A model generated the notes under the pieces. It did no database searches, was not told the DNA's origin, and saw only the letters and a list, made by a program, of their open reading frames with translations. Positions 1-45,909 of a stretch of 64,000 nt of DNA are shown here, piece by piece. The stretch's first letter is position 1. Every line of letters starts with the position of its first letter. Source of the DNA: Actinomycetota bacterium (lineage in GTDB: Bacteria > Actinomycetota > Acidimicrobiia > Acidimicrobiales > JAJPHE01); assembly GCA_021325435.1 (NCBI GenBank), contig JAJPHE010000072.1, positions 1,666 to 65,665 on the forward strand. Direction: 5' to 3'. The translations under genes and the position numbers were made by a program.

Positions 1-1221
1 GGTTTCTGTGGGTAGACGGATGGTGAGCCCGCCCAGGCAGAGGTAGACCATCGCGGCGAGGGAGTCGGTGTTGCGGAAGCCGTAGCCGCGGCGCTGAATG
101 AGCCGGATCCCGGCGTTGACTCCCTCCAGCAGGGCGTTCGACAGCCCCAGCTCGACGGCGGCGACGATGCCGTCGAAGTTGCGTCGGATGGTCCTGGCCA
201 GCTGCACCATGGCGGCGATGCGGCTGTGTGATGCCGAGCTCAGCCAGGCCCGCAGGTAGGGCCGAGAGAACTCGGGCGGCACCCGCCGATACAGATCCCG
301 CAGGCCCTCCTTGAGCTCCCAGGCGCGCCACAACCGGTTGGACTGCTGGCGCAGCCGGGCCAGCAACGCCAGCTGACCCTCGTTGAGGCGCTCGGCTCCG
401 GCCCGCAGCGCGAAGCGGGTCCGGCGCCAGTCGGCGTCGCCGACCCCCGAGCGCGACAGCTCCCGGCCGTGCGCCTTGTAGACCGAGTCGAGAGCCCGGT
501 TGGCCAGTTGGATCGCGTGGAAGGGGTCGAAGCAGATCACCGCCCGGGGGGCCTTGCGGCGGGTGGCGTCGCGATACACGGTGCCGAAGTCCATCGACAC
601 CGCCTTGAGTTTGTCGGCGCGTTCGGGCCCCAACGCGTCGAAGAAAGCCTCCAGGGCGGCGCCTCTTTTGCCCTTGGCCACCCAGACGACACCCTTGCCG
701 TCGTGATCGGCCACCACGGTCAGGTATTGGTGTCCGCGCCGATAGGAGATCTCGTCGACGCCGATCCGGTACAGGCCGTCGAGGCGGGACGAGTCGATGT
801 GTTCAGCCACCACCCGCCCCGCGATGTCGTGGACCGACTGCCACGAGCAGCGCATGAGGCGAGACACGGTGGTGAGGTCGGTTCGCTGGGCCAACCAGGC
901 CGACATGTCCTCGAAGTCCCGGGTGAACCGGGCGCCCGCACGGGCCCAGGGCACGACCTGGGTGCGCACCCGGCCACAGGCCCGACAGTCCACCCGGGCG
1001 ATGTCGGACTCGAGGAAGACCTTGGCCGCGGCCATGTCGAGATGGCGCCAGCGACGGGTCGAGGTGTCGTAGCGGGCCCGGGTGGTGGCCCCGCAGGGAC
1101 AGGTGAGCCGGCGGGCTCGGGACCGGATGCCCACCACGATCCCGCTGCGCTCGAAGCTCACCGATACGACGGTGGCCCCGGGCAGGGAGAGGATCCGGTT
1201 GAATGCCGTGGTGACGCGCAC
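1..1221 (-). CDS. ISL3-family transposase, partial (C-terminus runs off the left edge of the window)
   Basis: My own minus-strand translation from GTG at 1221 is open in frame to base 1, so it is absent from the ORF track for lack of a stop. Sequence: VRVTTAFNRILSLPGATVVSV...LTCPCGATTRARYDTSTRRWRHLD (zf-ISL3-like) ...YRIGVDEISYRRGHQYLTVVADHD...VICFDPFH...GVNAGIRLIQRRGYGFRN (DDE_Tnp_ISL3-like). GAGGAGG lies 9 nt upstream of the GTG. Confidence 0.85.
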   Translation of the reverse strand, partial: MRVTTAFNRILSLPGATVVSVSFERSGIVVGIRSRARRLTCPCGATTRARYDTSTRRWRHLDMAAAKVFLESDIARVDCRACGRVRTQVVPWARAGARFTRDFEDMSAWLAQRTDLTTVSRLMRCSWQSVHDIAGRVVAEHIDSSRLDGLYRIGVDEISYRRGHQYLTVVADHDGKGVVWVAKGKRGAALEAFFDALGPERADKLKAVSMDFGTVYRDATRRKAPRAVICFDPFHAIQLANRALDSVYKAHGRELSRSGVGDADWRRTRFALRAGAERLNEGQLALLARLRQQSNRLWRAWELKEGLRDLYRRVPPEFSRPYLRAWLSSASHSRIAAMVQLARTIRRNFDGIVAAVELGLSNALLEGVNAGIRLIQRRGYGFRNTDSLAAMVYLCLGGLTIRLPTET

Positions 1222-1300
1222 GTGCGCTGTCCTCCTCGTTCGATTGTCTTGGCAGACCCGAACCTAAGGAGGCCCCAGGGCATGTGCGCGTCTTTCGCGC
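1..1300 (-). mobile_element. ISL3-family insertion sequence, partial. The right-hand boundary is approximate because no terminal inverted repeat can be defined without the other end.
   Basis: Transposase gene at 1..1221 plus its upstream region. The IS terminus must lie between 1222 and about 1370, before the operator of the next gene. Confidence 0.55.
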
Positions 1301-1370
1301 CCTGAGGATTGGGGCGGTCAGCCCCTCTGGCCTGGAGCTATGCCGGCCCTGCTTGCTCCAGGTATCCACC

Positions 1371-1398
1371 CGAACGTGTGTTGGGGAACACACGTTCG
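1371..1398. promoter_or_regulatory. Perfect 12-4-12 inverted repeat containing an SOS (LexA/Cheo-type) box GAAC-N4-GTTC
   Basis: CGAACGTGTGTT-GGGG-AACACACGTTCG. The right box GAACACACGTTC(GA) is at 1386-1399. The left box GAACGTGTGTTG at 1372-1383 has one mismatch. The repeat ends 2 nt upstream of the -10 hexamer. It matches the actinobacterial consensus TCGAAC-N4-GTTCGA. Confidence 0.6.
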
Positions 1399-1399
1399 A

Positions 1400-1405
1400 T
1401 AGTAT
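1400..1405 (+). promoter_or_regulatory. -10 hexamer TAGTAT, 6 nt upstream of ATG 1412 (leaderless-type promoter)
   Basis: TANNNT lies 6 nt before the start codon and there is no Shine-Dalgarno sequence. The same geometry recurs at other first-in-operon genes in this window. Confidence 0.5.
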
Positions 1406-1411
1406 GCCCCG

Positions 1412-2899
1412 ATGGGGCAGCTGAGGTGGCGCCTGGCGGACGAGGAGGGCAGCCAGCCGGCGCTGTTCGATCCCGACGACCTGCTCGAGCGCGAGGTCGG
1501 GCGTGGCGAGTTCCGAGGCCTCGAGTTCCTCCACGTGAACGCCCGCCGGATCATCAACGAGGTGCCGGCGGCCTCGCGGATGCCTTTCCGGTACACGATC
1601 AACGCCTACCGAGGATGCAGCCATGCCTGCGCCTACTGCCTGGCTGGGAACACCAGGGTGCTGCTGGCCGATGGCCGGACCCGGCCGCTAGCCGACCTCC
1701 GGCCCGGGGAACTCGTCTGCGGGACGCAACGGGCGGCCAGCTACCGGCGCTACGTGGCCACCCCGGTCCTCGACCACTGGTCCACCGTCAAGGCGGCCCA
1801 TCGAATCACCCTCGAGGACGGGACCACCCTCGTGGCCAGCGGAGACCACCGGTTCCTTACCGACCGAGGGTGGAAGCACGTCACCCGCTCCGAGCCGGGC
1901 GCCCTACCGCGGCCCTTCCTCACCACCAACGACAAGCTGATGAGGGTTGGCGCCCTCCCTGCTCCCCCTGAACACGACGACTACAGGAGGGGCTACCTCT
2001 GCGGCCTGGGGCTGAAGTCCGAGGTCGGCCGACAGGTGCGCTCGATCGAGGCCCTCGGCATTGAGCTGCCGATGTACGACATCACCACCGGCACCGGCGA
2101 CTTCATCGCCAACGGCGTCGTGTCGCACAACTGCTTCGCCCGCCCCACCCATGAGTACCTGGGCCTGAATATCGGCGAGGACTTCGAGCGCAAGATCGTG
2201 GTCAAGATCAACGCGGTCGAGCGGGTGCGGGCCGAGCTGTCCCCGGCCCGGTGGGGCGGCGACCACATCGCCATGGGAACCAACACCGACCCGTACCAGC
2301 GGTGCGAGGGCAAGTACCACCTCACCCGCGGGATCGTGCAGGCCCTTGCCGAGCGGGCCAACCCTTTCTCCATCCTCACCAAGTCAACCCTCATCCTGCG
2401 CGACGTGGACCTCCTGGCCGAGGCGGCCCGGCGCACGGACGTGAGGGTGAACTTCTCCATCGGCACCCTCGACGAGGAGGTGTGGCGCCTGACCGAGCCG
2501 GGCACGCCGCATCCCCGACAGCGGGTGGCGGCGGTGGCCCGGCTGAACCGGGCCGGGGTGCGCTGCGGCGTGCTAGTCGCTCCCGTCATCCCCGGGCTGT
2601 CCGACCGTCCCAGCCAGATCCGGCGGGTGGTGGCGGCCTGTGCCGACGCCGGCGCCGTCTCCATCTCGCCAATCGCCCTTCACCTGCGTCCCGGCGTCCG
2701 CCAGCACTGGATGGAGTGGCTGGAGCGAACCCGCCCTGACCTGGTTTCCACCTACGAGCAGCTCTACCAGCGGGGCAGCTACCTACCGGCTACGTCCCAG
2801 CGGGCCCTGGCTGGTACGGCGGATCGGGCGCGGAAGGTGGCCCCCAGGCATGGCCCTGGCAACGAAAGGGAAAGTCCGGGGGGAACAACAAGGAGGTGA
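1412..2899 (+). CDS. Radical SAM protein, SplB/Rv2578c-like (DNA-repair-photolyase-like family); precursor containing a mini-intein
   Basis: [19 protein letters not shown]...[13 protein letters not shown]...[21 protein letters not shown]...[12 protein letters not shown]. CX3CX2C is at residues 69/73/76. Removing residues 76-240 restores a contiguous [20 protein letters not shown] and leaves a 330-aa protein. Confidence 0.9.
   Translation: [495 protein letters not shown]
1637..2131 (+). other. Mini-intein (165 aa, residues 76-240 of the radical SAM precursor), no intact homing endonuclease
   Basis: Block A is [21 protein letters not shown] (Cys1). Block B is [15 protein letters not shown]. 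Blocks F/G are [23 protein letters not shown] followed by the +1 Cys (CFARP). The short linker [11 protein letters not shown] may be a LAGLIDADG remnant. Confidence 0.8.
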
Positions 2900-45386: not shown

Positions 45387-45392
45387 TACCCT
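45387..45392 (+). promoter_or_regulatory. -10 hexamer TACCCT, 7 nt upstream of ATG 45400 (leaderless-type ruvC promoter)
   Basis: TANNNT geometry within the 53-nt gap after bcp. Confidence 0.4.
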
Positions 45393-45407
45393 CGAACGGA
45401 TGTTCGT
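45392..45407. promoter_or_regulatory. SOS (LexA) box TCGAACGGATGTTCGT overlapping the ruvC start codon
   Basis: 15/16 match to TCGAAC-N4-GTTCGA. The core GAAC-GGAT-GTTC is at 45394-45405, and the ATG at 45400-45402 spans the N4 spacer/GTTC half-site boundary. Confidence 0.65.
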
Positions 45408-45909
45408 GCTCGGCATCGACCCGGGTGTGTCGCGCTGCGGCTACGGCTGTGTCCGGCGAGGCGCCGCCGGCCTCGAGGCCGTCGCCGGCGGGGCCATAAC
45501 CACGTCGCCGGCGGACCCGTTGCCGCTCCGTCTGGGCCAGCTCGCCGGCGAGCTGGAGGCGTTGATTACCGAGCTCCAGCCCGACGCGGTCGCCGTCGAG
45601 CGGGTCTTCTTCCAGGTCAACGCCCGCACGGCGATGTCGGTGGGCCAGGCCAGCGGGCTGGCCCTGGCCGCCGCCGCCCGGGCCGGTTGTCCGGTCTTCG
45701 AGTACAACGCCAACGAGGTGAAGCAGGCGGTCGCCGGCTACGGGTCGGCGGACAAGCTGTCGGTGCAGAAGATGATCCAGAAGATCCTGGCCCTGCCGGC
45801 TCTGCCCCAGCCCCCTGACGCCGCCGACGCCCTGGCCCTCGCCGTCTGCCATCTGGCCGCCGCTCCGGTGCTGGCGGCCGCCGCCCGCCAAGGAGGAGGA
45901 AGCAGGTGA
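45400..45909 (+). CDS. ruvC: Crossover junction endodeoxyribonuclease RuvC
   Basis: [16 protein letters not shown]...AVERVFF...SVGQASG...[20 protein letters not shown]...L...[13 protein letters not shown]. The track ORF 44764 is an upstream run-on. Confidence 0.9.

Follow-up and report, generated by a model that had tools for sequence, protein, structure and literature searches.

The palindrome upstream of an intein-containing radical SAM gene in an Acidimicrobiales genome appears to be the junction of an ISL3-family insertion sequence with a conserved SOS operator

The DNA analysed here is a stretch of 64,000 nucleotides (nt) from contig JAJPHE010000072.1 of an Acidimicrobiales bacterium, referred to below as the window. 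Its left edge is occupied by an insertion sequence (IS) of the ISL3 family, an intein-containing radical S-adenosylmethionine (SAM) gene of the Rv2578c family follows, and a perfect inverted repeat lies where the two meet. An earlier note had read this palindrome as a double SOS operator, with two boxes for the repressor LexA, fused to a leaderless promoter of the radical SAM gene. The evidence described below makes it very probable that the palindrome is an IS junction in the conserved SOS operator of a leaderless radical SAM gene, and that the IS belongs to a clade that targets LexA boxes. Features are collected in Table 1. The locus is also present in a longer contig, L081; the window position is the L081 position minus 1699.

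Table 1. Features of the junction, the adjoining genes and the ruvC box (window positions unless stated otherwise)
Feature	Position	Strand	Sequence or remarks
ISL3-family IS	1..1387	-	1398 base pairs (bp) in total; from transposase hidden Markov models, the extended contig and alignment
ISL3 transposase coding sequence	1..1221	-	407 amino acids; GTG start 1221; stop just outside the window; L081 1697-2920
Left terminal inverted repeat (IRL)	1360..1387	-	TCCCCAACACACGTTCGGGTGGATACCT (minus-strand reading); includes palindrome left arm and spacer
IS-borne pseudo SOS box	1370..1385		CCGAACGTGTGTTGGG; 3 mismatches to TCGAAC-N4-GTTCGA; within IRL
Palindrome left arm	1371-1382		CGAACGTGTGTT
Palindrome right arm	1387-1398		AACACACGTTCG; spacer between arms GGGG, 4 nt
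Regenerated LexA operator (predicted)	1384..1399		GGGAACACACGTTCGA; perfect core, two flank mismatches
Right SOS box core	1386-1397		GAACACACGTTC; perfect GAAC-N4-GTTC
Target-site duplication	1388..1395		ACACACGT; second copy beyond the other IS end, at L081 1681-1688
-10 hexamer of the predicted leaderless promoter	1400..1405	+	TAGTAT; 6 nt before ATG 1412
Intein-containing Rv2578c-family radical SAM gene	1412..2899	+	495 amino acids
Mini-intein	1637..2131	+	165 amino acids, Cys76 to Asn240
Second SOS box	45392..45407	+	TCGAACGGATGTTCGT; overlaps ruvC start, ATG 45400

An inverted-repeat search recovered the palindrome as described in the earlier note, with 12-nt arms that are 100% complementary across 1371-1398. 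Its two halves also bore out the description: the right half holds an SOS box whose core is perfect; the core of the left box (GAACGTGTGTTG, 1372-1383) is GAAC-GTGT-GTTG, with one mismatch. The spacing to the hexamer had to be corrected, as the palindrome ends 1 nt (A1399) before TAGTAT and the stated 2 nt is the distance from the GTTC core. The position of the hexamer relative to ATG 1412 was as given, and no Shine-Dalgarno sequence precedes this codon. The predicted N-terminus, MGQLRWRL, aligns with the MGELRWRL starts of several homologues, which supports ATG 1412 as the start. A consensus scan of 1150-1500 found no sigma-70-type -35/-10 pair, as expected for a promoter relying on the -10 element alone. 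The GAAC-N4-GTTC core occurs twice in the window, against 0.56 occurrences expected, and 12 of 100 shuffled sequences also reached two, so that the count by itself is weak evidence. Both cores are located at start codons, those of the Rv2578c homologue and of ruvC, which are LexA targets in Mycobacterium tuberculosis.

The upstream regions of 80 orthologous loci from reference genomes were compared with that of the window. A perfect GAAC-N4-GTTC core was present a short distance upstream of the gene at 65 of the 80 loci, and at 64 with a stricter window. Among these 64, the sequence TANNNT followed 1-4 nt past the box core in 59, and in 58 an in-frame start codon completed the arrangement of box, 1-4 nt, TANNNT and start. 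The gap from hexamer to start was 6-8 nt in 53 of the 58. TTG was found about 3 nt upstream of the box in 36 of 64 orthologues, placing the box in a 17-nt spacer. The layout in the window matches that of the orthologues exactly, and the arrangement proposed earlier, an operator in the spacer upstream of the -10 element of a leaderless promoter, recurs across the family. One radical SAM orthologue (L010, positions 100-150) has two imperfect upstream boxes 30 bp apart, CCGAACATATGTTTGG and ACGAATATATGTTCGT, which may be a natural double site or the relic of an insertion or excision.

In M. tuberculosis the Rv2578c/Rv2579 site is peak 20 in a chromatin immunoprecipitation sequencing (ChIP-seq) study of LexA, with one mismatch and RecA-dependent induction (Smollett et al. 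2012, PMC3381160). This bears out the statement in the earlier note that Rv2578c is among the SOS-box genes of that organism. In the same study ruvC is peak 18, and the mycobacterial LexA consensus is TCGAAC(N4)GTTCGA (PMC3381160). Together with the conservation among orthologues, these data support the prediction that the right box is a genuine, conserved LexA-type operator upstream of the -10 element of a leaderless promoter. It is accordingly a well supported prediction that the radical SAM gene is under SOS control, exerted at an operator in the promoter spacer. Such control of the Rv2578c family is already known from M. tuberculosis, and the gene in the window adds a member whose leaderless design is clear.

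The DNA to the left of the right-hand box belongs to the IS. Its transposase matched NF033550 with 295.9 bits (cut-off 180), and the Pfam domains DDE_Tnp_ISL3 (PF01610, 209.6 bits), HTH_Tnp_ISL3 (PF13542, 48.2 bits) and Zn_ribbon_ISL3 (PF14690, 29 bits) all matched. The last 11 nt of the IS, which form the tip of the right repeat, precede window position 1 and lie at L081 1689-1699. Counted by eye, 16 of 24 positions agree between IRL and the right repeat of this element. With a similarity of only about 67%, the true terminal repeats escaped an inverted-repeat search of the IS, and the ends were located by homology to related elements. Relatives were used for this purpose since a look-up of the exact transposase returned only the same locus, in three assemblies, and no second copy. 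The same arrangement was present at this locus in four assemblies.

The element is bounded by a perfect target duplication, in which 8 of 8 positions are identical as a direct repeat (L084). With the GA of the IS tip this repeat lengthens to 10 nt (GAACACACGT). In the extended contig the far IS end is preceded by ...ctctgTCGAACACACGT, and the far-end reading is ...cctctgTCGAACACACGT then GCGTCAACTCAGGTTTCTGTGGGTAG; the near end reads, on the minus strand, ...ATACTATCGAACGTGTGT then TCCCCAACACACGTTCGGGTGGATACC. Rejoining the flanks gives cctctgTCGAACACACGTTCGAtagtatgccccgATG, which contains the perfect 16-mer consensus TCGAACACACGTTCGA at the orthologous offset with 0 mismatches. The reconstructed native site is cctctgTCGAACACACGTTCGAtagtat and the corresponding IS-free allele CCTCTGTCGAACACACGTTCGATAGTATGCCCCGATGG. 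G1386 and A1387 of the right operator derive from the IS tip and its remaining bases are native, and the box at the far junction reads GAAC-ACAC-GTGC.

The position of the IS end was further defined by alignment with seven related elements, in which homology, beginning at the transposase start, continues as far as the IS tip and stops exactly at TCGAAC-N4-GT. The identical 28-nt IRL is found in a related IS, with a transposase 81% identical, at an unrelated metagenome site (L187) that has its own perfect duplication, ACACGCGT. In another relative (L186, 89% identical) IRL differs at 1 nt. The repeat of this IS lineage contains cAAC-ACAC-GTTCg, and the palindrome is perfect because the operator N4 (ACAC) happens to complement ACAC in the IS end. 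These comparisons indicate that the palindrome is a composite junction of the native operator and an IS terminal repeat and not an evolved double operator. Template switching after insertion was also considered as the source of the perfect left arm, and was rejected since the same 28-nt end occurs elsewhere.

Two blocks conserved in the IS clade, GAAAGACGCGCAC and CCTTAGGTTCGG, were seen in the transposase leader (1245-1310, minus strand; columns ~120-160 of alignment A2). The second contains TAGGTT, a -10 candidate about 45 nt before the transposase GTG. Past the IS, L081 1-1670 carries a 70-amino-acid open reading frame (ORF), a divergent DUF72 gene and, at the contig end, an IS256-type (Transposase_mut) fragment; the upstream part of this contig is rich in mobile DNA.

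The same target was found throughout the clade, taken here as metagenomic relatives of the transposase at >=49% identity. The ends of its members resemble TCCCCTCCTCAssTTTsTGTGGGT, and on either side the flank is tCGAAC-N4-GT, reaching as far as the IS end. Across 47 ends, positions -10 to -7 were G in 44, A in 44, A in 45 and C in 46, and positions -2 and -1 were G in 47 and T in 43. When 67 distinct flanks were pooled, 53 had an exact GAAC-N4-GT and 64 had it with at most one mismatch, the background being 5.5e-4 per position. Rejoined flanks rebuild TCGAAC-N4-GTTCGA. Perfect 8-bp direct repeats were present in 10 of 19 two-ended elements, seven of these repeats being non-palindromic, and six further elements gave the same result. 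As the flanks are related as direct and not inverted repeats, they are target duplications of the central AC-N4-GT and lie outside the element. Elements with the identical transposases P0134 and P0185 were each found at five or more different boxes. On pCP54, a complete plasmid from an isolate of Rhodococcus opacus that is represented among the 67 flanks, the duplication is ACTTATGT and the empty site reads TCGAACTTATGTTCGA. It thus seems, from these alignments, that an ISL3 clade in Actinomycetota inserts at the centre of LexA boxes and rebuilds a near-complete box at both junctions.

The genes next to these insertions were also examined. On the 370-kb contig L188 an IS lies in the box of a leaderless Y-family polymerase gene, where the sequence reads GTTCGA g TACCCT ggttccg ATG. 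Other IS-flanking genes encode DUF222 proteins, a DnaQ-like exonuclease (RNase_T) and an MDMPI_N/DinB_2 protein; Pfam searches with 70-amino-acid N-terminal fragments were uninformative, and longer fragments gave the DUF222 and RNase_T assignments. The M. tuberculosis counterparts of the flanking DUF222 proteins are presumably the 13E12-repeat family. Several of the strongest M. tuberculosis LexA sites lie at DUF222 counterparts (PMC3381160). Many IS-flanking ORFs (L107, L108, L089, L100 and L092) begin ATGTTCGA (Met-Phe-Asp/Glu), with the start codon inside the SOS box, and at least some of the ORFs with this beginning encode DUF222 proteins. A recognisable regulated gene usually faces the left end of the IS (L188 2309-2336; left flanks of L084, L090 and L112), where the TC of the tip makes the core perfect again. 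These cases, though few, hint that one orientation may be preferred.

Other explanations of the palindrome can be weighed against these data. As the earlier note supposed, it could be a double LexA operator; had it evolved as such, its neighbouring boxes would let LexA repress the radical SAM gene cooperatively and more tightly. Each half is similar to the consensus, their centres are 14 bp apart, and promoters with two SOS boxes in tandem or overlapping are known elsewhere, as at E. coli lexA, recN and the colicin operons. Unlike those, the second box here comes from the IS, has its mismatch at an important base and is missing from every orthologue: none of the 64 promoters has a second box with at most one core mismatch within 40 nt upstream. 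The left box lies within an IS repeat that the earlier note had overlooked, the same 28 nt stand at an unrelated site, and its mismatch alters the GAAC half-site G that is conserved in 44 of 47 IS target half-sites. An evolved double operator is therefore highly improbable. We give even less credence to the view that TCGAAC-N4-GT is the outermost part of longer IS repeats, so that the IS would have brought the gene-side box with it. That sequence does adjoin both ends of nearly every element. However, the N4 at the two ends is direct, and never inverted, in 13 non-palindromic cases, and copies with identical transposases and repeats differ in N4 and outer flanks. Moreover, the outer half-box runs into host promoters complete with -10 element and start codon, both at the radical SAM gene and at the Y-family polymerase gene of L188, and the box stands at an equal offset in orthologues that have no IS. 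The least can be said for a role of the palindrome as a hairpin (terminator, attenuator or cruciform), or for a chance repeat without any part in regulation, and both are barely credible. Twelve perfect base pairs closed by a 4-nt loop would make a stable stem, but there is no T-run at the palindrome, a scan of 1150-1500 found no terminator-like site, and a leaderless mRNA starting at 1412 would exclude the palindrome. By arithmetic estimate a perfect hairpin with 12-nt arms and a fixed 4-nt loop is expected by chance about 0.004 times per 64 kb, and each half is separately explained by the conserved operator and the IS repeat.

The alternative that deserves most attention keeps the double operator and assigns it to the IS. 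The pseudo-box in the IS end would then be a functional LexA site, and LexA on this and on the junction box would hide the end from transposase, or block transcription, until removed in the SOS response. Three elements of this IS lineage, at three sites, share the pseudo-box, and other sub-lineages have a GTTCG half-site at the same position of the repeat, for example ACGTTCGTGTGGG in the P0185 group. Near-complete boxes are also regenerated at both junctions in most elements. Against this, most members of the clade have TCCCCTCCTCAssTTT at the pseudo-box positions, which contains no box, and the likely transposase -10 (the TAGGTT in the second leader block) lies about 120 nt deeper in the element. 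The single core mismatch also falls at a highly conserved position; since C replaces the half-site G discussed above, the pseudo-box is predicted to be at best a weak LexA site. We consider a functional pseudo-box unlikely, and prefer to read the palindrome as a junction of operator and IS end.

Several observations count against this preferred reading. No IS-free copy of the exact locus was found, and the empty site had to be reconstructed. Conservation and the M. tuberculosis data are the grounds for predicting LexA binding, induction by damage and the transcription start. At the junction the -35 region has been replaced by IS sequence and the flank of the box has changed from TC to GG, both of which may alter regulation; given the perfect core and the intact -10 element and start codon, LexA control probably persists after the insertion. 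If the pseudo-box binds LexA, the IS-derived double operator might after all be functional. The radical SAM protein scores slightly under the NCBIfam curated cut-offs, though these models are its best matches by far. Finally, about one third of the metagenomic IS copies have non-matching duplications. SOS half-boxes were present on both flanks with an unmatched duplication in L088, L090, L094, L098, L099, L100, L107, L112, L169, L172 and L190. These could be chimeras of short-read assembly across the repeat, or the products of real IS-mediated recombination between SOS promoters.

The following sequence of events would account for the locus. At the native promoter a LexA dimer on GAACACACGTTC would block RNA polymerase, and DNA damage would free the promoter through RecA-stimulated cleavage of LexA. 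Transcription, which we infer to start at or next to A1412, would give an mRNA translated without a leader, and the mini-intein would have to splice out before the radical-SAM cluster site could form. The ISL3 element would have integrated at the exact centre of TCGAAC-ACAC-GTTCGA, duplicating the central 8 bp. With the TC of the IS tip (GA on the plus strand), the gene-side junction would have regained a perfect GAAC-N4-GTTC, leaving the -10 element and start codon untouched. As to why the IS chooses operators, the clade might recognise the LexA operator, or LexA bound to it, cut symmetrically at the centre and rebuild operators, carrying in the present case a pseudo-operator in its own end. 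We put this forward tentatively, as a doubtful proposal. If it were true, the SOS response would, through LexA occupancy, govern access to the IS ends and with it transposition, and SOS promoters genome-wide would become portable recombination sites.

The radical SAM protein itself matched NF038136, the model for intein-containing members of the Rv2578c family, with 646.9 bits over the full protein (curated cut-off 700). NF038135, the Rv2578c family model, gave 404.4 bits with the full protein and 409.2 bits with the spliced extein (curated cut-off 430). Homologues at 70-77% identity are plentiful in Acidimicrobiia, from metagenome-assembled genomes (MAGs) of Acidimicrobiales. In translation the intein reads CLAGNT...VVSHN followed by Cys, so that the N-terminal Cys, the C-terminal His-Asn and the +1 Cys are all present, and the excised 165 residues matched TIGR01445 with 28.4 bits (cut-off 24.5). 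The CxxxCxxC cluster motif takes the form C69-SHA-C73-AY-[intein]-C241, where intein-free homologues have CSHACxYC. The intein interrupts this motif exactly at the third Cys, a position filled after splicing by Cys241, the +1 residue of the C-extein; the iron-sulfur ligand set is therefore complete only after splicing.

An alignment showed that nearly all Rv2578c-family homologues end in Q-L-x-L-G-(L/V), for example QLGLGV, QLSLG or QLDLGL. A similar tail, QLVLGL, binds the beta clamp in E. coli Pol IV; if the resemblance is real, it would link the Rv2578c-type radical SAM family to the replisome. The protein encoded in the window (2780-2899) is without a QLxLG tail, and examination of all frames found no frame or frameshift that restores it.

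The independent box that the earlier note had placed at ruvC was found where described, with the ruvC start codon within its N4. RuvC was identified by Pfam with an E-value of 1e-46, and ruvA and ruvB follow, the ruvCAB cluster being confirmed by Pfam. TACCCT at 45387-45392, 7 nt from the ATG, is the likely -10 element, and ruvC also appears to be leaderless (45387-45409).

The closest counterpart of the promoter is the Rv2578c/Rv2579 site of M. tuberculosis, which serves the same gene family, follows the same operator consensus and likewise lies immediately upstream of its gene; ruvC, a LexA target there, is boxed here. The present case differs in that it comes from an Acidimicrobiales MAG, of another class, and in that the gene bears an intein, is leaderless with the box in the promoter spacer, and has an operator that was split and regenerated by an IS.

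For the behaviour of the IS, the closest analogues are IS elements that target repetitive extragenic palindromic (REP) sequences (PMC1525189), ISPpu9 (PMC12288879) and the IS1202 family at dif/pdif Xer sites (PMC10132070). All insert, as here, at a fixed position in a short, conserved, multi-copy palindromic motif that binds a protein, and REP- and dif-type targets likewise offer many low-cost landing sites per genome. Unlike these elements, the present clade has an ISL3 DDE transposase, makes 8-bp duplications, inserts at the exact centre and rebuilds the operator core, and the sites it targets, in DNA-damage gene promoters, are operators of a transcription factor. With canonical ISL3 (GGCTCTTC-type ends and 8-bp A/T-rich duplications) it shares the transposase domains, a length of about 1.4 kb, imperfect repeats ending ...TGTGGGT and the 8-bp duplication. 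A sister ISL3 group at 40-45% identity has GGCTCTCC... ends and lies at A/T-rich sites with no box, the duplications being CCATTTCG and CCTTTTTG (L125 and L153), whereas the clade at >=49% identity needs TCGAAC-N4-GTTCGA. A literature search found no published report of an IS that targets operators or SOS boxes, or of ISL3 linked with an SOS box, ISfinder being outside the scope of the search; the operator-targeting clade seems to be undescribed. Mobile DNA is tied to the SOS regulator in other ways: integron integrases, the Tn5 transposase, SOS-induced prophages and integrative and conjugative elements are LexA-controlled, with a LexA site in their own promoter. The present elements share that tie, with the host LexA sites serving as the integration target.

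On the evidence of the promoter sequences, LexA control of Rv2578c-type radical SAM enzymes would extend from mycobacteria to Acidimicrobiia, and the fixed design of an operator in the spacer of a leaderless promoter supports a role in DNA repair for this uncharacterised family. In motif scans of Actinomycetota, an IS junction can pass for a double operator. Insertion of a DDE transposase element with base-pair precision into a transcription-factor operator is an unusual mode of targeting, and the clade offers a naturally occurring case in which to study the reading of a palindromic motif, or of a bound repressor, by a transposase. Operator-targeting elements of this kind could explain rearrangements between SOS-regulated loci, and suggest a direct route by which mobile DNA may sense or rewire the SOS regulon.

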